Positions 261 through 9,720 of a stretch of 10,398 nt of DNA are shown piece by piece. Source of the stretch: a virus. A model generated the notes under the pieces. It was not told the DNA's origin. It was given only the letters and a program-made list of their open reading frames with translations, and searched no databases. The stretch is taken from UHGV virus genome UHGV-0267725, one strand, 5' to 3'. The stretch's first letter is position 1, and each line of letters opens with the position of its first letter. The translations under genes and the position numbers were made by a program.

Positions 261-1022
261 ATGGAAACCGTTTTTGACGCACTGAAAGCAATGGGAAAAG
301 CCACATCGGTAGAACTGGCCGCGCGACTTGATATCAGTCGTGAAGAGGTTCTCAACGAGCTGTGGGAGCTCAAAAGAAATGGCGTCGTTGATAAAACTGG
401 TCACACCTGGTTTCTGGCTGGCGAAGGTGAATCCCTGGTAACCGAAGAGCGGCCAGTAAAATCTGAAGCACAGGATATGCTGACCGGGGAGGTCGAACAA
501 AAAGTTACCGCAGACATGATGATTGAGTTTATCGGTCAGGATGGGGCTAAAACGTGTGAGGAACTGGCGGGTAAGTTCGGCATCAGTACTCGCAAGGTTG
601 CTTCCACGCTGGCGGTGGTAACCGCAACGGGGCGGCTGGCACGCGTTAATCAGAGCGGTAAATTTCGTTACTGCATGCCGGGCGGTAATTTACCAGCAGA
701 GCCGAAAGCAGCATCGGTAACGGAAAATGATGGTAAAGCCTTTCCTCAGCCAGCAGGTGTTGCGTTACCAGTGCAGGAAGTTGCAACACAGGAAGATATT
801 AAAACAGAAACTGTGGCGGACACTTTGCAGTCGCTGCCATCGTTTACTGAAACGCGAGCGGATGACCTGATTTTACCATCGCTGCATATGGCAAACCTCG
901 AACTGCGTCGGGCGAAAAGTCATGTCCAGAAGTGGGAACGAGTCTGCGCCGCGCTGCGGGAGCTGAACAAGCACCGGGATATTCTTCGTGATATTACCGC
1001 GACCGGAGAGCTGCAGCGGTGA
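261..1022 (+). CDS. Phage protein with N-terminal winged-helix-like domain (253 aa); possibly a prophage DUF family (DUF1627-like, unverified)
   Basis: ATG 261 sits 8 nt after GGAGG (248-252). The N-terminal ~45 aa ([41 protein letters not shown]) look like a small wHTH DNA-binding fold. Stop TGA 1020-1022 overlaps the next start (GTGA). Confidence 0.8.
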
Positions 1023-1336
1023 GTGGCTGGAAGAAGTGGTACGAGGCTGAAATCATGATACTCCGGCAGTGTGCGGGAACGATGACGGTCGAAAGCATTG
1101 GGAGGCTGACCGGTCGTACAGGTGATGCTGTCAGAACGAAAGCGCGGGAACTGGGTGTCAGCCTGATGTTACGGGGTGATTATCACCAGTCAACAAAATA
1201 TCCGCAGAGTGATATTGAACTGGCGCGACAGCTGCATCAGCGTGGCGTACCCAGGAGAGAAATCGCCAGAAAATTTGGAATGCCGTTGCGCACAGTGAAT
1301 AACTACGTTTATTTCGACAGGAGAGTTCAGGAGTGA
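1019..1336 (+). CDS. Helix-turn-helix DNA-binding protein (105 aa)
   Basis: GTG 1019 overlaps the upstream stop; an alternative in-frame ATG lies at 1055. The C-terminal segment [20 protein letters not shown] is a classic HTH, and [23 protein letters not shown] is a second HTH-like segment. Stop TGA 1334-1336. Confidence 0.65.
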
Positions 1337-1338
1337 GG

Positions 1339-1632
1339 GTGAGAGTTTATATTGCCGGTCCAATGACCGGGTATAAAAATTTCAACCGTGAGGCGTTTCA
1401 CAAGGCGGAAGATGAACTGAAACGGGAAGGGCATACAGTCTTAAACCCGGCAGTACTTCCGGACGGGCTGACACAGCCACACTACATGGATATTTGCATG
1501 GCGATGATTCGTTGCGTGGATGCGATTTACATGCTGCAAGGCTGGCAGCGGTCAGCAGGCGCTAAGGCGGAACTGGCGCTGGCGGAGAAGCTGGGGCATG
1601 CGGTTATTTTCCAGGAGACAGCCAGTGAGTGA
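1339..1632 (+). CDS. DUF4406-type small protein of the nucleoside 2-deoxyribosyltransferase-like superfamily (about 97 aa)
   Basis: AGGAG 1328-1332 is followed by GTG 1339; GTG 1333 is an alternative start that overlaps the upstream stop. Translation MRVYIAGPMTGYKNF...QGWQRSAGAKAELALAEKLGHAVIF shows an N-terminal Gly-rich loop and a C-terminal S-x-G-x-x-x-E region reminiscent of the NDT-like fold. This is a family assignment from memory. Confidence 0.7.
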   Translation: MRVYIAGPMTGYKNFNREAFHKAEDELKREGHTVLNPAVLPDGLTQPHYMDICMAMIRCVDAIYMLQGWQRSAGAKAELALAEKLGHAVIFQETASE

Positions 1633-1885
1633 ATCAAAATGCCAGGTTTATGGCAACAAAATAGAACCGTGTGCGGCATTGGCAAAAGCACTCGAATATG
1701 GAAATCCAGCATTTAAGAGTAAAGGCATATTTATCCCGGAACGCGTGAATATAAACACCGGCGAGCCAGGCTTAGACATCGCTCAAATACACTCCGGTCA
1801 ATATGTTGGTCGTGGCGTTGCAATGTGTTTTTGTCCGTTCTGTGGTGAAAGTCTGAAAACATGGGGAAGAGGAAGCAACCGGTGA
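1625..1885 (+). CDS. Small Cys-rich protein, putative zinc ribbon (86 aa)
   Basis: GGAG 1614-1617 is followed by GTG 1625, 8 nt overlapping the upstream stop (1630-1632). Cysteines lie near the N-terminus (SKCQ...EPCAAL) and in CFCPFCG near the C-terminus. The ORF-track extension back to 1520 lies inside the preceding gene in another frame and is not used. Confidence 0.5.
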   Translation: MSESKCQVYGNKIEPCAALAKALEYGNPAFKSKGIFIPERVNINTGEPGLDIAQIHSGQYVGRGVAMCFCPFCGESLKTWGRGSNR

Positions 1886-2044
1886 GCGAAATTAACTTTC
1901 AGGCACTGCGTGACGTGAAAGAGAAAGCATAATCCAAGCCTGAATAATTAAACTCAGCACTGTAAATAAAATTTAATCCTTAACCGGAGGGATTTCTGCA
2001 CCCTCAGAACATCAGGAGGCCGCCTGAAAGGGCGGTAATGAAAA

Positions 2045-2767
2045 ATGACTGAATTAACAAAAGAGCAATTAATCGAAGAAGCTAAATTAAAAATAGCGGT
2101 TGCGAAATGCCACCCCAATTCAGGCGTGGCACGAGTAGAGGGTGAGTTATTCAAAATTGCACTGGCATCGCTGGAAGCAGAGCCAGTGGCATATCAGTAT
2201 CGCCAGTGGGATGCAGAATATGATGAATGGGGAGAATGGGAAGATTGCGGGGAATATGCTTTCGAAAGATTTGTTGAGGAAGAGAAATGCCAGGGGGCAG
2301 GTGTTCAGACCCGTAAGCTATACGCCACGCCGCCAATGCTGGTGGTGCCGGATGAACGGGCTGCCTATGAGTTATTTATGGAGAAGCATTTCGGGGATTC
2401 TGTAGATCGCCGCAGGGTAAAAAATGGCGGTAGTGAATACATGGCATGGGATATGGCGATTGGCTGGATTATCTGGTGTCACCGCGCCGCTATGTTTCAG
2501 GCCGGAAACTTTCGGAAAAATAAGAATTCGTCAACCAGCTCCCCGGCAACTCCGGATGATTGGATAAGCTGTAGTGAGCGAATGCCGGATAGCAAAACAG
2601 CTGTTCTTGTTGCCAGGGAGTTTGACGGGAAAGGTGACTGGCGAATGAAGTGGGCGACTTACATACCGGGACATCCTGATGCTAATGATGGTTGGATAAT
2701 TCCTGGTGCGTCGTGGATTCCATCACACTGGATGCCGCTACCAGAACCGCCGCAGGAGGCGAAATGA
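2045..2767 (+). CDS. Phage protein with C-terminal DUF551-like segment (240 aa)
   Basis: ATG 2045 follows an AT-rich intergenic region (1886-2044). The middle is acidic and Trp-rich, and the C-terminus has W-x-PLPEPP, which I associate with DUF551 phage domains (unverified). Stop TGA 2765-2767 overlaps the next ATG. Confidence 0.75.
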   Translation: MTELTKEQLIEEAKLKIAVAKCHPNSGVARVEGELFKIALASLEAEPVAYQYRQWDAEYDEWGEWEDCGEYAFERFVEEEKCQGAGVQTRKLYATPPMLVVPDERAAYELFMEKHFGDSVDRRRVKNGGSEYMAWDMAIGWIIWCHRAAMFQAGNFRKNKNSSTSSPATPDDWISCSERMPDSKTAVLVAREFDGKGDWRMKWATYIPGHPDANDGWIIPGASWIPSHWMPLPEPPQEAK

Positions 2768-3231: not shown

Positions 3232-3531
3232 TTATAAGAAATCGGTTTCATAACTTTGCCCACCATGATAGATACCGACAATAAAGACTTTTCTGCCATC
3301 AACGGCAAAAGCAATAATCGTTCTGTGGCGGAAATGAGTTACCCGCATCCCCTGGCGAATATCATCGCGTTTATTGCCCCGATGCGGGAATGTAGAAAAC
3401 CCATCAAGATAATCAAGAAGCGCATTGGCATAATTGTCAGCAATGACGCTTCCTGCTTTCTCCGTTATGTATCTGTGCAGGTTGATTATCTGCTGTTCGG
3501 CCTCAGGAGTAATGATGACTTCATATGTCAT
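3232..3531 (-). CDS. parE: ParE-family toxin (RelE/ParE superfamily), 99 aa
   Basis: Minus-strand ATG (complement of 3529-3531) gives MTYEVIITPEAEQQIINLHRYITEK...FIVGIYHGGQSYETDFL. It starts 5 nt after the antitoxin stop. Size, position after an RHH antitoxin and the C-terminal R/H-rich region are typical of ParE toxins. The ORF-track extension to 3642 overlaps the antitoxin and is not used. Confidence 0.85.
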   Translation of the reverse strand: MTYEVIITPEAEQQIINLHRYITEKAGSVIADNYANALLDYLDGFSTFPHRGNKRDDIRQGMRVTHFRHRTIIAFAVDGRKVFIVGIYHGGQSYETDFL

Positions 3532-3536
3532 GCAGA

Positions 3537-3794
3537 TTACTTCCCGGATCGAATCGCAGCGCGAACCTGTGAAATGGAGCGTCCGTTGTTCGGGTTTTTG
3601 CGGATTGAATCCAGGGAGGGGGCGGCTGAATGCGTTAACCACGCTTCGATTGCTTTATCGCGCTCATTCAGTGCGCGAAGCCCTTCACGAATGACCTCGC
3701 TTTCTGAAGCATAGGCACCGGAAGCCACACGGGCGCGCACCATGTCAGCCATCTCGTTAGTTAATGTAATGCTGAATTGTTGGGTTGTACGCAT
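3537..3794 (-). CDS. parD: ParD-family antitoxin (ribbon-helix-helix, COG3609-like), 85 aa
   Basis: Minus-strand ATG (complement of 3792-3794) has a good SD (TGAGGT, 6-nt spacer). Translation MRTTQQFSITLTNEMADMVRARVASGAYASESEVIREGLRALNERDKAIEAWL matches the ParD/CC2985-type antitoxin pattern (SE-V-REGLR). It lies immediately upstream of the toxin. Confidence 0.85.
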   Translation of the reverse strand: MRTTQQFSITLTNEMADMVRARVASGAYASESEVIREGLRALNERDKAIEAWLTHSAAPSLDSIRKNPNNGRSISQVRAAIRSGK

Positions 3795-3829
3795 GGTAAA
3801 CCTCAAGGAGTAGGATAGAACACTATTCG

Positions 3830-3857
3830 ATGATAGCACGTTGCCTGTTGACGACAA
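3830..3857 (-). promoter_or_regulatory. Candidate sigma70 promoter for parDE
   Basis: On the minus strand, TTGTCG (complement of 3852-3857), a 16-nt spacer and TATCAT (complement of 3830-3835) lie about 35 nt upstream of the parD ATG. A + strand TTGACG (3847-3852) overlaps this, so a divergent promoter is possible. Based on sequence motif only. Confidence 0.25.
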
Positions 3858-4203: not shown

Positions 4204-5262
4204 GTGCGGGTATTACTTCGATCTGTTCCGGTACCGGAACTTGGGCTGGTGGTCCTTAAGCCTGGTCGTGAATCCATGCAGGTATTCCGCAGCGGTCGTG
4301 TACTGGTGGAGCCGGAACCGAAAAGCATGCGCGGTCTGCCGTCCGGAGTCGTTCCTGCCGTTCGCCAGCCATTGGCGGAGGATAAATCACTACTGCCATT
4401 TTTCAGCGATGAGCGGGTGATTCGTGCTGCTGGCGGCGCTGGCGCACTGTCTGACTGGCTGTTACGCCATGTTAATTCCTGCCAGTGGCCTCATGGTGAC
4501 TACCATCACAGCGAAACCGTCATACATCGTTACGGTACCGGTGCAATGGTGTTGTGCTGGCACTGCGACAACCAGCTGCGTGACCAGACTTCCGAATCAC
4601 TCGGGCAGCTTGCTCACCAAAACCTGTCAGCATGGATGATTGATGTCATCCGCCACGCAATGAATGGCGCGCAGGAGCGGGAATTATCGCTGGCTGAATT
4701 ATCCTGGTGGGCAACCATAAATAACGTAGCGGACGCACTACCGGAGACGGTATTACGTCGTTCGCTGGGATTACGCGCGGAAAAAATCCGCTCAGTATAC
4801 CGCGAAAGCGACATCATACCGGGAGAGCAGACAGCCACCAGCATACTGAAGCAGCGCACAAAAAATATTGCGCCGTTGCCTCACGCCCACCAGCAACAGA
4901 ATCCACCACAGGAAAAGACGGTGGTCAGCATTGCCGTTGATCCGGAGTCATCGGCTCAGTATCTCCAGCGCCAGAAACCACAACGGGAAGAGATGCCCGT
5001 ATACACGCGCTGGGTAAAAACGCAGAAATGCATGACGTGTGGCAATCAGGCAGATGATCCGCATCACATCATTGGTCATGGACTGGGAGGGATGGGAACA
5101 AAGGCTGATGATTTGTTTGTTATTCCGCTGTGCCGTAAATGCCATAGCGAACTACACGCCGGGGTAAAAGATTTTGAAGAAAAACACGGCAGCCAGCTGT
5201 TGTTGCTGATTCGTTTTTTAATGCACGCGAGAAATTCGGGTGTTCTGAAGTGGAAAGCATAA
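4204..5262 (+). CDS. DUF968-family phage protein with C-terminal HNH-like Cys/His motif (352 aa)
   Basis: GTG 4204 is 4 nt after GGAGG. The C-terminus has C-x2-C...HH-x14-C-x2-C-H (CMTCGNQADDPHHIIGHG...CRKCHSELH). Overall size and pattern resemble DUF968 proteins of E. coli prophages (from memory, YdfU-like). Stop TAA 5260-5262 abuts the rusA ATG. Confidence 0.85.
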   Translation: MRVLLRSVPVPELGLVVLKPGRESMQVFRSGRVLVEPEPKSMRGLPSGVVPAVRQPLAEDKSLLPFFSDERVIRAAGGAGALSDWLLRHVNSCQWPHGDYHHSETVIHRYGTGAMVLCWHCDNQLRDQTSESLGQLAHQNLSAWMIDVIRHAMNGAQERELSLAELSWWATINNVADALPETVLRRSLGLRAEKIRSVYRESDIIPGEQTATSILKQRTKNIAPLPHAHQQQNPPQEKTVVSIAVDPESSAQYLQRQKPQREEMPVYTRWVKTQKCMTCGNQADDPHHIIGHGLGGMGTKADDLFVIPLCRKCHSELHAGVKDFEEKHGSQLLLLIRFLMHARNSGVLKWKA

Positions 5263-5628
5263 ATGACTGAACGCATAGAATTTGTTTTGCCTTACCCGCC
5301 AACGGTGAACACCTACTGGCGACGTCGTGGCAGCACATATTTTGTATCAAAAGCCGGTGAGCGTTATCGCCGTGATGTGGCGCTTATTGTTCGCCAGCAG
5401 CAGTTGAAATTAAGCCTGTCCGGACGGCTGGCGATAAAGATTATTGCAGAGCCACCGGATAAACGTCGTCGTGACCTGGACAATATCCTGAAAGCACCAC
5501 TGGATGCGCTGACGCATGCCGGATTACTCATAGACGACGAGCAGTTTGATGAAATCAATATTGTGCGCGGTCAGCGCGTTCCTGGGGGGCGGCTGGGCGT
5601 GAAGATTTACAAAATTGAGAGTGAGTGA
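5263..5628 (+). CDS. rusA: RusA-family Holliday junction resolvase (121 aa)
   Basis: ATG 5263 directly follows the upstream TAA. Translation contains LPYPPTVNTYWRRRG, PDKRRRDLDNILKAPLDALTHAGLLIDDEQ and GGRLGV, matching the conserved RusA motifs, including the catalytic Asp cluster. Confidence 0.9.
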   Translation: MTERIEFVLPYPPTVNTYWRRRGSTYFVSKAGERYRRDVALIVRQQQLKLSLSGRLAIKIIAEPPDKRRRDLDNILKAPLDALTHAGLLIDDEQFDEINIVRGQRVPGGRLGVKIYKIESE

Positions 5629-6179
5629 TCGTAAATATGATATACCCGGAAATTACAGGCAAAAGCGGCGAGCATTTACGTCTAAAAACGCTGGAAGCCG
5701 TCTGGATCCAGGGGAAATTACGGATGTGGGGGCGTTGGTCGTATATAGGTGGTGGCAAAACAGGAAATATGTTCAATCAGTTGCTGGCATCCAAAAAACT
5801 GACAAAAACCGCAATCAATGAAGCCCTGCGTAGAATCAGGGAGTCAGGGATTGATAAACCAGAGCTGGAAGCATTCTTGCGAGAGATGATCGCTGGCAGA
5901 CAGAAGAGCTGGTTGTCTCACTGTACTGATGCAGAGGCGTTACGCATTGATGGGGTGATAAGTAAAGCGCTTGCACGTTATCCTGGATTGATTGATATCC
6001 TGCGGCAAAGATACGAAGGGCGGGGGATGAGTAAACGCAAAATGGCTGAATTGTTGAATGAGGTGCACCCGGAATGGTGTTTTAGTACATGCGAAAAGCG
6101 AATTGCTAATTGGTTGGCTGTTGCTGAATATGCGCTATACATCCCTATGCGAGAATCGTTTGCTCAAAAAATGTCTTGA
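5625..6179 (+). CDS. Q-position protein, putative late-gene antiterminator (184 aa from GTG 5625, or 180 aa from ATG 5637)
   Basis: The start overlaps the rusA stop (GTGA). The gene lies immediately upstream of a promoter-like element and a strong intrinsic terminator, which is the lambdoid Q/pR'/tR' position. The protein has no obvious Cys4 finger, so its family is uncertain (a non-lambda-type Q or a DUF). The functional call is positional inference only. Confidence 0.7.
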   Translation: MIVNMIYPEITGKSGEHLRLKTLEAVWIQGKLRMWGRWSYIGGGKTGNMFNQLLASKKLTKTAINEALRRIRESGIDKPELEAFLREMIAGRQKSWLSHCTDAEALRIDGVISKALARYPGLIDILRQRYEGRGMSKRKMAELLNEVHPEWCFSTCEKRIANWLAVAEYALYIPMRESFAQKMS

Positions 6180-6758: not shown

Positions 6759-7808
6759 ATGGCCAATACTGTAAAAATATCCAGTTGTGAGTTAATCAAC
6801 GCTGATTGCCTGGAATTTATCCAGACCTTACCGGAAAATTCTGTCGATCTGATAGTCACAGACCCGCCATACTTTAAAGTGAAGCCCGAGGGCTGGGATA
6901 ACCAGTGGAAGGGCGACGATGATTACCTGCAATGGCTGGAGCAGTGTCTGGCGCAGTTCTGGCGGGTACTGAAGCCTGCCGGAAGTCTTTACCTGTTCTG
7001 TGGTCATCGCCTGGCATCTGACACCGAAATCATGATGCGTGAGCGCTTTAATGTGCTGAACCACATTATCTGGGCGAAGCCGTCCGGACGCTGGAACGGA
7101 TGCAACAAGGAAAGCCTGCGGGCGTATTTCCCCGCCACAGAGCGCATTCTGTTCGCGGAACATTATCAGGGGCCGTATCGTCCGAAAGATGCCGGGTATG
7201 CGGCGAAGGGCAGTGCACTGAAACAGCATGTGATGGCCCCGCTGATTGCTTACTTTCGTGATGCGCGAGCTGCCCTGGGGATAACGGCAAAACAGATTGC
7301 AGATGCCACAGGAAAGAAAAACATGGTGTCGCACTGGTTCAGTGCCAGTCAGTGGCAGCTACCGAACGAAAGCGATTATCTGAAATTACAGTCGCTGTTT
7401 GCCCGGGTGGCAGAAGAGAAACATCAGCGCGGTGAACTGGAAAAGCCCCACCACCAGCTGGTGGATACGTATACGTCACTGAACCGGCAGTATGTGGAGC
7501 TGCAGAGTGAATATAAGCATCTGCGGCGGTATTTTGGTGTGACGGCGCAGGTGCCGTACACGGATGTGTGGACACATAAACCGGTGCAGTTCTATCCCGG
7601 GAAACATCCGTGCGAAAAACCGGCAGAAATGCTGCAGCAGATAATCAGCGCAAGCAGTCGTCCGGGTGACCTGGTTGCAGATTTTTTTATGGGCTCAGGT
7701 TCAACGGTAAAAGCTGCACTGGCGCTCGGGCGTCGTGCGATTGGCGTTGAACTGGAGACCGGACGTTTTGAGCAGACAGTCAGGGAAGTTCAGGATTTAA
7801 TCGTTTGA
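6759..7808 (+). CDS. DNA amino-methyltransferase, beta class (N6-adenine or N4-cytosine), 349 aa, orphan
   Basis: Motif IV DPPY (LIVTDPPYF) lies near the N-terminus and motif I FxGxGS (DLVADFFMGSGSTVKAALALGRRAIGVE) near the C-terminus. This motif order defines the beta class. No restriction endonuclease candidate is adjacent. Confidence 0.9.
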   Translation: MANTVKISSCELINADCLEFIQTLPENSVDLIVTDPPYFKVKPEGWDNQWKGDDDYLQWLEQCLAQFWRVLKPAGSLYLFCGHRLASDTEIMMRERFNVLNHIIWAKPSGRWNGCNKESLRAYFPATERILFAEHYQGPYRPKDAGYAAKGSALKQHVMAPLIAYFRDARAALGITAKQIADATGKKNMVSHWFSASQWQLPNESDYLKLQSLFARVAEEKHQRGELEKPHHQLVDTYTSLNRQYVELQSEYKHLRRYFGVTAQVPYTDVWTHKPVQFYPGKHPCEKPAEMLQQIISASSRPGDLVADFFMGSGSTVKAALALGRRAIGVELETGRFEQTVREVQDLIV

Positions 7809-7857
7809 AACGGATGATATTGAAGAATTAATTACGCGTCGTTATTATGCGGCTCCC

Positions 7858-7933
7858 GGCCCTTTAGCTCAGTGGTGAGAGCGAGCGACTCATAATCGCC
7901 AGGTCGCTGGTTCAAATCCAGCAAGGGCCACCA
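7858..7933 (+). tRNA. ileZ: tRNA with anticodon CAU, Ile2 (lysidine) type, ileZ-like; 76 nt
   Basis: I folded the cloverleaf by hand: acceptor GGCCCTT/AAGGGCC, D-stem GCTC/GAGC, anticodon loop CTCATAA, T-arm GCTGG-TTCAAAT-CCAGC, discriminator A, encoded CCA. The sequence closely resembles E. coli tRNA-Ile2 as I recall it. Confidence 0.9.
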
Positions 7934-7934
7934 A

Positions 7935-8011
7935 CCGCCATTAGCTCATCGGGATAGAACGCCAGCCTTCGAAGCTGGTTTCGCGGGGTTCGAGTCTCCG
8001 ATGGCGGTCCA
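7935..8011 (+). tRNA. argN: tRNA-Arg, anticodon UCG, argN-like; 77 nt
   Basis: Acceptor CCGCCAT/ATGGCGG, anticodon stem CCAGC/GCTGG with loop CTTCGAA, T-arm CGGGG-TTCGAGT-CTCCG with one G-U pair, encoded CCA. The D-stem has one mismatch. Confidence 0.88.
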
Positions 8012-8024
8012 TTATCGGTATTCT

Positions 8025-8101
8025 GCGTTGTTAGCTCAGCCGGACAGAGCAATTGCCTTCTAAGCAATCGGTCACTGGTTCGAATCCAGTACAACGCACC
8101 A
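8025..8101 (+). tRNA. argO: tRNA-Arg, anticodon UCU, argO-like; 77 nt
   Basis: Acceptor GCGTTGT/ACAACGC, anticodon stem ATTGC/GCAAT with loop CTTCTAA, T-arm ACTGG-TTCGAAT-CCAGT, discriminator A, encoded CCA. Confidence 0.9.
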
Positions 8102-8270
8102 CACTTATTTTCCCTCGCTCGCTTTTGCGGACCTTTTTTGTATCCGCACCACGCCCGGCGCATACCAACCACAGAGCCTTTCGGGGGGAGCTTATGGAGT
8201 GGTCAGTGTGACTTTCTCTGTGGGCAGATCGCTCCCGGGCGTTGGCTCCCCCACCCAAAGAAACGTCACG

Positions 8271-8689
8271 ATGTTTGGTATTTTTGGTAAAAAGGCCCGC
8301 AGAGCGGCAACGGAAATTAAAAAGTTTTAAAAACGCGATCTGGCACAGGCGGTGATTAACGCCGCATACCTGGTGGCTTGTGCAGGTGGTGAGTGAGGCT
8401 TCCGATCGAACAGGTACTGCGTAATCAGCCAGCGCTGTCCGCGTTTACGTCAGAAATTAATGCGATGAGCGCAACCATTATCGGTCAGCTGGATACGAAC
8501 TTTAAAATTGGTCGTCGTGCGGCGTTACGTGAGATCGAGGATGTGAAACACGATACGCGTGAAGCGGAAGATGTGCTGGATGTGGCGGTGGCCATTGCGG
8601 AGGCAGACGGCGAAATTGAGCCGGAAGAGCGCAAGGTGCTGGAAGAGATTGCCGGTGTTCTGGGTCTTCGTATGGATAATCACCTGTGA
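8271..8689 (+). pseudogene. Decayed TerB-like (tellurite-resistance TerB family) gene; the 3' part (GTG 8393-8689, 98 aa) remains an intact ORF
   Basis: The reading is interrupted twice. ATG 8271 gives MFGIFGKKARRAATEIKKF and hits TAA at 8328-8330. The same frame continues as KRDLAQAVINAAYLVACAGGE and stops at TGA 8394-8396. A second frame, shifted relative to the first, then carries ...AEDVLDVAVAIAEADGEIEPEERKVLEEIAGVLGL to 8689. The two A-x-ADGE-type segments look like the two halves of a TerB fold split by a premature stop and a frameshift near 8390. Confidence 0.45.
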
Positions 8690-8853
8690 CGGTAAAACTG
8701 CGCCTGGTTGTGGCTGCACTCCTGCTGTTTCTGGTGGTGATGGTGGATTTCACCAGCAGAATCATGTCGGTGCTGGCGGATGGGGTGCTGGTCTGCGGCA
8801 TTGTGGTATTGCTGTGGCCGGTGATAAAAAGAAACAGCCTGCATAATGCTTGA
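8686..8853 (+). CDS. Candidate small membrane protein (55 aa, two hydrophobic segments)
   Basis: GTG 8686 overlaps the TerB-like ORF stop (GTGA); stop TGA 8851-8853. Translation is VTVKLRLVVAALLLFLVVMVDFTSRIMSVLADGVLVCGIVVLLWPVIKRNSLHNA. There is no SD, so translation would depend on coupling. It is below the ORF-track size cutoff. Confidence 0.35.
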   Translation: MTVKLRLVVAALLLFLVVMVDFTSRIMSVLADGVLVCGIVVLLWPVIKRNSLHNA

Positions 8854-9068
8854 TTTTTTTGTTTACTGTTTATTAAAAACACTTCTGCATGGTGAATCCC
8901 CCTGTGCGGAGGGGCGACTGGTGTAGGTAGCATTTATTATGTTATAGGCAAGCCGACGCGGGTTCAGTGACACCGGCTGAATTCACCGGGAGGCACCCGG
9001 CACCATGCGCTGCAACAAAAGTGTTATTTCTGTTTTTCTCAAACTATCATCGTTATCCCTTTATTTCC

Positions 9069-9095
9069 GGCTGCGCATGGCGCGGCCTTTTTTTT
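9069..9095 (+). terminator. Rho-independent terminator inside the long non-coding stretch
   Basis: An 8-bp stem GGCTGCGC (9069-9076) pairs with GCGCGGCC (9080-9087) with one G-U pair, around the loop ATG, followed by 8 T (9088-9095). Confidence 0.7.
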
Positions 9096-9276
9096 ACGAC
9101 CAGCCACTGGCAGATGGTCATCCTGTGATTTGATTCCGGTTCCGGCTTTTTAACTCTGTTCCTGTACACGGGAGAAATTCGATGTCGATTAATCGTTATG
9201 ATATTGGTTACACGAAGTACCACGTATGGTGTTGAGATAAAAAGCCTGGTGCCAGAGGTAAATGCAGCAGCATCAT

Positions 9277-9325
9277 AAAAAAAGAGCCAGCGCAGAAGAG
9301 AACGGGTAAAAGAGTCTGCGCTGGC
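9277..9325 (-). terminator. Candidate minus-strand terminator / 11-bp perfect inverted repeat
   Basis: GCCAGCGCAGA (9286-9296) and TCTGCGCTGGC (9315-9325) are perfect inverted repeats separated by 18 nt. On the minus strand the hairpin is followed by TCTTTTTTT (complement of 9277-9285). The loop is long for a classic terminator, so this could instead be a protein-binding site. Confidence 0.4.
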
Positions 9326-9504
9326 GTGGGGATATTCCCCGTGGAGAAATGATATGTAACACACATCGGGAACCTTTCTATATAAACATTATCATTATTG
9401 TCAATCATAACAGTCAGGTATTATGACGTTTATGCCTCAGGGACATCAGGAATTAACTGGTGGCTTTTTATTGTTGTCAGCTTCCGGATAACGGGAGACG
9501 GGGT

Positions 9505-9720
9505 ATGGACCAGATGGAAAAAATCACAACAGGTGTGTCATACACCACTTCAGCGGTGGGGACGGGATACTGGCTACTGCAGTTGCTGGACAAAGTCTCC
9601 CCATCCCAGTGGGTGGCAATAGGTGTATTGGGTAGCCTGGTGTTTGGCCTGCTGACGTATCTGACAAACCTTTATTTCAAGATTAAAGAAGACAAGCGTA
9701 AGGCTGCACGGGGAGAGTAA
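9505..9720 (+). CDS. S: Class II holin, phage 21 S-type pinholin with dual start (71 aa antiholin from ATG 9505, 68 aa holin from ATG 9514)
   Basis: GGGAGA (9493-9498) precedes ATG 9505. Translation [71 protein letters not shown] has the Met1/Met4 dual-start motif, two transmembrane segments and a basic C-terminus. It is near-identical in pattern to S21/EssD as I recall it. Confidence 0.9.

Follow-up and report, generated by a model that had tools for sequence, protein, structure and literature searches.

Do small genes that are chained to one another by overlapping starts in a prophage make up a functional unit? The question is raised by positions 1019-1885 of a 10,398-nucleotide (nt) stretch of the UHGV virus genome UHGV-0267725 (the whole stretch being referred to here as the window), in which three such genes lie one behind the other. 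An original prediction, made from the DNA sequence, had read them as a translationally coupled module of a helix-turn-helix (HTH) regulator, a nucleoside 2-deoxyribosyltransferase (NDT)-like enzyme of the DUF4406 family and a Cys-rich, putative zinc-ribbon partner, with the nucleotide pool or modified bases as its target and a possible part in anti-defence. The best explanation overall, which we regard as probable on balance, is that the three genes are independent accessory cassettes and that the DUF4406 product is a minimal protein of the NDT/DNPH1 fold with an inferred (deoxy)nucleotide N-glycosidase-like activity. The block and its immediate flanks are as follows.

261..1022, plus strand: DUF1627 gene, 253 amino acids (aa), winged-HTH-like N-terminus (Pfam PF07789, E 7.5e-96; phrog_630)
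1019..1336, plus strand: gene of the small HTH protein (gene 1), 105 aa from GTG 1019; the alternative ATG 1055 gives 93 aa
1333..1632, plus strand: DUF4406 gene, 99 aa from GTG 1333 or 97 aa from GTG 1339
1625..1885, plus strand: gene of the four-Cys protein (gene 3), 86 aa, with Cys6, Cys16, Cys70, and Cys73
1861..1932, plus strand: 5' remnant of an Ead/Ea22-like open reading frame (ORF), 23 codons from ATG 1861 or 16 from GTG 1882

Reading of the sequence confirmed the chaining of the genes that had been described. The TGA of the DUF1627 gene (1020-1022) is overlapped by GTG 1019, as GTGA, opening the 105-codon ORF of gene 1, the TGA of which (1334-1336) is overlapped in the same manner by GTG 1333, with a second in-frame GTG at 1339; GTG 1625 opens an 86-codon ORF that shares 8 nt with the DUF4406 gene, which ends at 1632. 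GGAG is found 7-10 nt 5' of every one of the three starts. Each of the three products has many conserved homologues, which establishes all three as genes. Some gene callers choose ATG 1055 for gene 1; the equivalent of GTG 1019 is kept in its GTGA context in about 66 of the 80 homologous loci, the codon at the position of ATG 1055 is CTG or CTT in about 40 of them, and conserved Trp residues N-terminal to that position are likewise kept. As the GTG is kept where the internal ATG is absent, the 105-aa form is the better call. The start of the DUF4406 gene is ambiguous between 1333 and 1339: gene callers are split between the two, most family members begin with M-[KR]-[IV]-Y-I-A-G, which fits GTG 1339, and a start at 1339 would leave a 2-nt gap instead of an overlap.

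These overlaps are universal in this region. The 5' junction of the DUF4406 gene is a 4-nt overlap in all 79 scorable cases from 80 close loci, with a DUF977/LygF-like or an HTH gene upstream alike; the junctions of gene 3 are nearly all overlaps of 1 to 20 nt (mostly 4, 8, 13, and 14 nt), and elsewhere in the window a 4-nt overlap joins rusA to the Q-like gene that follows it. The genes of the block may well be translationally coupled, but coupling is a property of the operon and not evidence for a three-gene unit.

We then compared the gene neighbourhoods in related phages and prophages, and the three genes were found, with high likelihood, to be independently shuffled mobile cassettes in chance juxtaposition. 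Across 80 viral loci of gene 3, covering relatives from 97 to 48% identical, a DUF4406 gene is adjacent in one; it lies within 4 kb in 10 and is absent from that distance in 70. Conversely, gene 3 follows the DUF4406 gene in 1 of 79 close DUF4406 loci, the usual downstream neighbours being an Ead-like ORF (59/79) or a 94-aa membrane-type ORF (9/79), and the neighbours downstream of 80 close DUF4406 genes fall into 9 clusters. Upstream of close DUF4406 genes a DUF977/LygF-like gene is found in 61 loci and the HTH gene in 18. The neighbours of gene 3 fall into 18 clusters on its upstream side and 10 on its downstream side. Of 5,426 complete genomes of Escherichia coli, DUF4406 DNA is present in 1,295 and gene-3 DNA in 394 (with 125 places on plasmids), and the junction of the two was found in a single genome, O55:H7 USDA5905.

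Gene 3 is found at many different places in phages of the lambdoid, P22-like, and P1/P7-like kinds. A homologue lies between DUF2737, which there follows an anti-RecBCD gene, and ead in the P22-like prophage of E2348/69, and others are found in P1/P7-like phages (e.g., upf87.4 in P7), in both cases with no DUF4406 gene nearby. Among L004-L083 and L084-L163, the DUF977/LygF-like gene is followed by DUF4406 in the 61 loci already mentioned and by gene 3 in 24 loci. The junction is a 4-nt overlap in every case, and DUF4406 and gene 3 thus act like interchangeable cassettes for a single slot. The remnant at 1861-1932 marks a mosaic junction, a recombination or deletion scar right after gene 3: within its peptide, (MGKRKQP)VSEINFQALRDVKEKA followed by a stop, the segment VSEINFQALRDVKEKA matches the N-termini of Ead/Ea22-like genes that lie 3' of gene-3 homologues elsewhere. 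Intact Ead-like genes stand 3' of gene-3 homologues in many other prophages, and the annotation of E2348/69 agrees.

Against this stands the reading of the block as a co-translated functional module, which has points on its side besides the chaining of its genes. The DUF4406 gene is adjacent to the HTH gene in 60 of the 78 HTH loci with enough downstream sequence (and absent in the other 18), a gene-3 homologue is often found one gene past DUF4406 in Rac-type prophages, and an identical gene-3 allele stands directly 3' of DUF4406 in all six contigs shown, although the upstream gene varies (HTH, long DUF1627, or DUF977). However, the adjacent DUF4406/gene-3 pair is confined to a narrow, young lineage that carries this identical allele, and the single adjacencies among 80 and 79 loci, the presence of gene 3 without DUF4406 in P22-like and P1/P7-like phages, and the alternation of the two genes after the DUF977-like gene all oppose a module, as does the universality of the overlaps. 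None of the three proteins was matched by PADLOC, which leaves the anti-defence idea without support. We therefore consider a module improbable. The original prediction had named the lack of co-occurrence in other prophages as what would refute it, and this is largely what the loci reveal; the Cys protein as a dedicated partner of the enzyme is not borne out. In essence, the block is a mosaic of known, uncharacterised families, correctly observed and correctly read at the level of the fold of its middle gene.

The middle protein was identified as a DUF4406 member, as had been predicted. Its residues 4-93 match Pfam DUF4406 (PF14359) over profile positions 2-91 of 91 (E 3.4e-38; 130.4 bits against a cut-off of 22 bits), and it also matches PHROG 355, which is labelled 'nucleoside 2-deoxyribosyltransferase'; the RefSeq label is 'DUF4406 domain-containing protein'. 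The family is large, with 18,207 representatives (50% identity clusters) at E <= 1e-3. Structure prediction, one of the checks proposed in the original prediction, returned the NDT-like fold: the AlphaFold (AF2) model, built from 45 sequences, has a predicted local distance difference test (pLDDT) score of 92.7 and a strand-helix-strand-helix-strand-helix-strand topology with four strands. The top Foldseek match in the PDB is the NDT of Trypanosoma brucei (2a0k; E 2.5e-5, template modelling (TM) score 0.75), followed by NDTs of Leishmania, Chroococcidiopsis, Bacillus, and Desulfotalea, DUF1937 (1t1j), the CMP N-glycosidases MilB and BcmB, and the 2'-deoxynucleoside 5'-phosphate N-hydrolase DNPH1; matches 1-26, at probability 1.0, nearly all belong to NDT, DUF1937, or MilB, and their query TM scores range over 0.70-0.78. 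The target TM scores are only about 0.5 because the DUF4406 protein is shorter than the targets, and with targets of 130-160 aa it is a truncated version without the C-terminal third. The protein is an ordinary DUF4406 member with a minimal (about 97 aa, four-stranded) NDT/DNPH1 fold. TIR domains are among the weaker fold matches.

The relationship is also found by profiles, provided that they are broad enough. The single sequence found nothing among PDB sequences and a narrow profile gave chance matches only, which indicates that a broader profile is needed; in a PDB-wide search, a profile of 60 diverse relatives found 2a0k at E 3.3e-4 with the motifs aligned. Searching with a profile from a diverse DUF4406 alignment recovered mainly enterobacterial proteins again, with no added diversity, and a single-protein scan with the distant member P0308 gave no matches. 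When 20 longer proteins that contain DUF4406 were scanned with Pfam and PHROG, no partner domain was recognisable in them; the profiles phrog_12019 (MazG-like pyrophosphatase) and phrog_15484 (hydrolase) hold a DUF4406-like segment.

Conservation is strong at the putative active site. The key residues are Tyr6, Gly9, Gly13, Tyr51, Cys55, Ser74, Gly76, and Glu80 (numbered from GTG 1333). In the profile alignment with 2a0k, Tyr6 of V-Y-I-A-G-P aligns with the Tyr of I-Y-I-A-G-P, Cys55 with the Asn of K-N-I-Q-M, and, in the D-x-G-T-x-x-E motif (D-C-G-T-A-F-E), Ser74 with the Asp and Glu80 with the catalytic Glu. In rat Rcl, Tyr6, Ser74, and Glu80 would presumably correspond to Y13, S87, and E93 (the alignment score is not significant); by helix register, Cys55 corresponds to D69 of Rcl. 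In a set of 150 representatives (50% identity), Ser74 is Ser in 144 of 144 aligned sequences, Glu80 is Glu in 142 of 144, Gly9 is kept in 142 of 142, Gly76 is Gly in 142, and Tyr51 is kept in 148 of 150. The Gly-rich N-terminal loop and the C-terminal Glu on which the original prediction had been based are thereby borne out, the Glu lying at the position of the nucleophile. A further motif, L-N-P-A-x-L-P-x-G-L...Y-M (residues 37-52), is nearly invariant and specific to DUF4406, and it sits at the variable shielding loop of DNPH1.

Two of these positions vary. The column of Tyr6 holds Tyr in 121 representatives and Phe in 20, so that Phe is found in about 13% of the members; in MilB, Phe in place of the Tyr after strand 1 goes with a preference for ribo- over deoxyribonucleotides. 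Position 55 is Cys in 102, or about two thirds, Asp in 22 (about 15%), Thr in 9, Ala in 7, and Gly in 6. The Cys/Asp and Tyr/Phe variation suggests that there may be sub-families of DUF4406 with different chemistry or substrates.

Comparison with characterised enzymes sets out how far the likeness goes. In DNPH1 the core triad is Y24/D80/E104, and S98 holds the phosphate together with S128', which comes from the helical extension of the neighbouring subunit (PMC10603095). The Tyr after strand 1 orients the Glu nucleophile (PMC10603095, PMC12884076), and the 5'-OH-binding Asp/Asn of the transferases is absent from the nucleotide hydrolases (PMC12884076). DUF4406 has the flavodoxin-like alpha/beta fold of DNPH1/Rcl and MilB/BcmB (Foldseek probability 1.0, TM about 0.7), the Tyr after strand 1, and a Ser-x-Gly-x-x-x-Glu motif in which the Ser-to-Glu spacing is that of S98/E104. 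It differs from these enzymes, which are of about 130-160 aa, in having about 97 aa with four strands, in lacking the helical extension that donates the second phosphate ligand in DNPH1, in having Cys55 at the position of Asp80, and in its own N-P-x-x-L-P-x-G-L...Y-M loop; the likeness is one of fold and motif, the sequence match to DNPH1/MilB not being significant. NDTs (PF05014; T. brucei 2a0k, Leishmania 6qai, Chroococcidiopsis 8pqt) are the best structural and profile matches, and they share with DUF4406 the Y-I-A-G-P strand-loop and the catalytic Glu, whereas their 5'-OH-binding Asp is Ser in DUF4406, their triad Asp/Asn is Cys, and their C-terminal third is missing.

Among phage proteins, DmtZ is an NDT-like dAMP N-glycosidase/deoxyribose-5-phosphate transferase of the PurZ0 Z-genome phages, with the triad Tyr6/Asn77/Glu103 (PMC12884076). 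DmtZ and DUF4406 are both phage-encoded members of the NDT superfamily; DmtZ acts on 2'-deoxynucleoside 5'-monophosphates (dNMPs) and adjoins dNTP pyrophosphohydrolases (DutZ, DUF5664), and a few distant DUF4406 genes adjoin a DUF5664-type domain. Unlike the protein of the window, DmtZ is about 145 aa long with five strands and a Tyr/Asn/Glu triad, and it belongs to Z-genome actinophages; neither PurZ, DpoZ, nor other Z-pathway genes were found in the window. The closest known system is rac19 of phage Rac-SA53 (PF14359/PHROG 355), which agrees with the window gene in length, in its invariant residues, and in its place within a Rac/lambdoid early operon. Nothing material differs between the two, and the window gene is one more allele, albeit with a direct juxtaposition to the four-Cys gene that is rare.

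To describe the wider context, the neighbours of distant DUF4406 relatives were scored in two samples: 17 loci, some of them related (sample 1), and 22 non-redundant lineages among L269-L340, with up to three nearest ORFs per side (sample 2). In sample 1, L175 has the N-terminal domain of a dATP/dGTP diphosphohydrolase (DUF5664) as its direct downstream neighbour (E 1e-23; the match in L174 is weak), a class II ribonucleotide reductase is nearby in L178-181, N6/N4 methylases are directly upstream in L173 and L175, and further neighbours are DUF550, dCMP deaminase, endonuclease VII, NinB, DnaB, and DNA polymerase A. Sample 2 is dominated by DNA methyltransferases and recombination nucleases, with five matches to DNA methyltransferase families (two Dam, two D12, and one C5) besides HNH, Ead, integrase, and lysis genes. 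In a figure of a Brachyspira prophage, a winged-HTH regulator, an N6-methylase, and DUF4406 are consecutively numbered. A neighbourhood of nucleotide metabolism as a general rule was rejected, as it is found in part of sample 1 only and does not recur in sample 2. The general context of DUF4406 is a replication, recombination, and accessory region, with nucleotide-pool neighbours in some lineages only.

From the fold and the motif, we tentatively propose that DUF4406 could be a minimal N-glycosidase or sugar-phosphate transferase that acts on a dNMP-like substrate via a covalent Glu80 intermediate. An N-glycosidase of (deoxy)nucleotides, or a related enzyme of the nucleotide pool, would be its likeliest function, although as a specific claim on chemistry this falls somewhat short of probable. 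The protein would bind a dNMP or a close relative, with Tyr6 orienting the nucleophile and Ser74 serving as the 5'-phosphate-binding Ser as in DNPH1 and MilB. Glu80 would attack C1', releasing the base and forming a covalent sugar-phosphate-enzyme intermediate, which would then be hydrolysed or handed to another base. Cys55, or Asp in the relatives that carry it, would fill the position of the general acid, and the N-P-x-x-L-P-x-G-L...Y loop would probably stand in for the missing C-terminal lid. While the phage DNA is being replicated, the protein would presumably adjust the nucleotide pool or sanitise it.

Several observations weigh against this proposal. The triad Asp/Asn is to be expected in helix 2, eight residues ahead of the Asp with which strand 3 begins, where Cys55 is found instead; the protein stops a few residues past strand 4 (E90-93 of 99) without a helical extension or the C-terminal residues that the neighbouring subunit contributes in NDTs; and no segment is equivalent to the S128' extension of DNPH1 or to Arg23 of MilB that would supply a second phosphate ligand or closure. 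The active site may thus be incomplete or work differently. Moreover, the residue equivalences come from sequence/profile alignment and helix register, with no superposed coordinates, nucleotide-pool enzymes are absent among the neighbours in the 22 lineages of sample 2, and our literature search found no functional or biochemical study of DUF4406, DUF1937, or these genes. The literature mentions the DUF4406 family in passing only, in line with the original prediction that its function was unassigned. Of the nucleotide-processing enzyme that had been predicted, the fold, Tyr6, Ser74, and Glu80 speak for it, and the Cys at the Asp position and the missing C-terminal extension speak against it.

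Other functions for the same fold are less probable. That DUF4406 is a true nucleoside 2-deoxyribosyltransferase, swapping bases between deoxynucleosides for salvage, is what phrog_355 and some RefSeq names would imply, and NDTs do lead both the fold and the profile matches, with Tyr and Glu conserved. We nevertheless hold it to be quite unlikely: the match to Pfam Nuc_deoxyrib_tr (PF05014) reaches E 0.11 and 13.1 bits, far under the cut-off of 28.8 bits, and the invariant Ser at the place of the 5'-OH-binding Asp is the state of the nucleotide hydrolases DNPH1 and MilB, to which the Cys in the triad and the absent C-terminal third have to be added. The very small size, the absence of lid and extension, and the Cys in place of the general-acid Asp in most members would better suit a non-catalytic sponge or regulator, whose NDT/TIR-like pocket would sequester a nucleotide (e.g., a host signalling molecule) or modulate a neighbour such as a DNA methyltransferase; the TIR domains among the weaker fold matches and the DNA methyltransferases that often adjoin DUF4406 in unrelated phages point the same way. 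However, highly diverse members share a nearly invariant Glu, orienting Tyr, and Ser-x-Gly, which is predicted by catalysis rather than by binding alone, and the family has no PADLOC or anti-defence link, so we consider a purely binding protein unlikely.

A bolder form of the enzymatic proposal is, in our estimation, doubtful to a similar degree. Here the DUF4406 proteins would be widespread minimal phage N-glycosidases/sugar-phosphate transferases with a Tyr/Cys/Glu site and the family loop as a lid, acting on a non-canonical or modified deoxynucleotide (e.g., methylated or damaged dNMPs from phage growth), with the four-Cys protein perhaps recruited as an accessory subunit in the lineage of the window. 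Such a substrate would fit the recurrent DNA methyltransferase neighbours and, in some phages, the dATP/dGTP diphosphohydrolases and the ribonucleotide reductase. We retain the simpler combination of three independent cassettes with an N-glycosidase-like DUF4406 protein as the best explanation.

The two genes that flank DUF4406 were characterised in the same manner. Gene 1 is best explained as a small HTH protein that binds DNA and has as its usual companion DUF1627, which is found upstream in 75 of the 80 homologous loci. The HTH assignment of the original prediction is supported by phrog_323 'transcriptional regulator' (E 4.5e-28) and by PDB 2lvs, a tandem-HTH protein of 105 aa (E 1e-4). The Pfam families HTH_23, Sigma70_r4_2, and HTH_7 match within residues 60-98, each below its gathering score (HTH_23 on residues 71-96, 23.0 bits under a cut-off of 24.6 bits). 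BLASTP of the two halves of the protein found no similarity that would indicate an internal repeat, which leaves the 2lvs match as the sole source of the 'tandem' description. RefSeq names a 105-aa homologue (WP_086186330.1, from E. coli PEC178; L165, 2493-2810) 'HAD family hydrolase'; neither Pfam nor NCBIfam supports this for the window protein, and the name is probably a misannotation.

Gene 3 (phrog_4030) has 84 clusters of homologues, all from phages and prophages of Enterobacterales, and Pfam has no family match for it. The Cys-rich character that had been predicted is conserved as C-x9-C ... C-P-F-C, formed by the four Cys residues listed above (a zinc ribbon has two zinc knuckles, as a rule both C-x2-C, on beta hairpins), and C-x(8-11)-C...C-x2-C is present in 65 of 75 full-length homologues, the exceptions being mostly frameshifted or chimeric; the most conserved stretch is the C-terminal F-C-P-F-C-G-E-S-L-K-T-W. 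The same four Cys are found in its full-length homologues Upf87.4, from phage P7, and other hypothetical proteins of phrog_4030. The model (pLDDT 72.9) is mostly beta, with beta strands on either side of both Cys sites, and has no significant match to any solved fold, so the zinc ribbon of the original prediction finds no confirmation in it. Judged by its Cys pattern, gene 3 probably encodes a small metal-binding (Zn) protein, for which a structural metal site is plausible. A scan of genome contigs for gene 3 gave no confirmed locus.

The prophage is of the Rac/lambda-like (lambdoid) type of E. coli, and the window spans the region from early-right to late. The stretch of three genes is best explained as part of the early-right operon, after the replication genes and ahead of DUF968, RusA, and Q. 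Sister contigs with the identical 86-aa protein are arranged alike and carry cro/ydaS, ydaT, and replication genes upstream, and in phage Rac-SA53, where ydaW is the counterpart of the DUF1627 gene, the order is ydaU-ydaV-ydaW(DUF1627)-lygF-rac19(DUF4406)-ead-rac21(gene-3 homologue)-rac22. Within 1019-1885, a scan of the block revealed no promoter or terminator signal above chance and no match to Rfam families. Beyond the block, the window carries the following features.

2045-2767, plus strand: DUF551 gene
3232-3531, minus strand: ParE toxin, equal to the 99-aa toxin of sister contigs (the mechanical ORF with a GTG start reaches 3642)
3537-3857, minus strand: ParD antitoxin, on the opposite strand within the prophage early region
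4204-5262, plus strand: DUF968/HNH gene
5263-5628, plus strand: rusA
5625-6179, plus strand: DUF1133/Q-like gene
6759-7808, plus strand: N6/N4 DNA methylase
7858-8101, plus strand: tRNA-Met, tRNA-Arg(tcg), and tRNA-Arg(tct)
8393-8689: TerB-like ORF
8861-9041, plus strand: STnc100 small RNA
9460-9720, plus strand: P21-type holin

The ParD/ParE pair is present in all sister contigs too. The arrangement at 6759-9720 is reminiscent of the late region of Shiga toxin (Stx) phages, without the toxin genes.

The window serves mainly as a caution: in lambdoid early operons, starts that overlap are no sign that the genes work as partners. About one in four complete E. coli genomes carries DUF4406, and its diverse relatives in phages and prophages number many thousands. 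None of these proteins has been characterised, and the first phage NDT-like dNMP enzyme, DmtZ, dates only from 2026. With a near-complete DNPH1/NDT-type motif on a stripped-down scaffold, the family would reasonably repay biochemical work on the editing of nucleotide pools by temperate phages.

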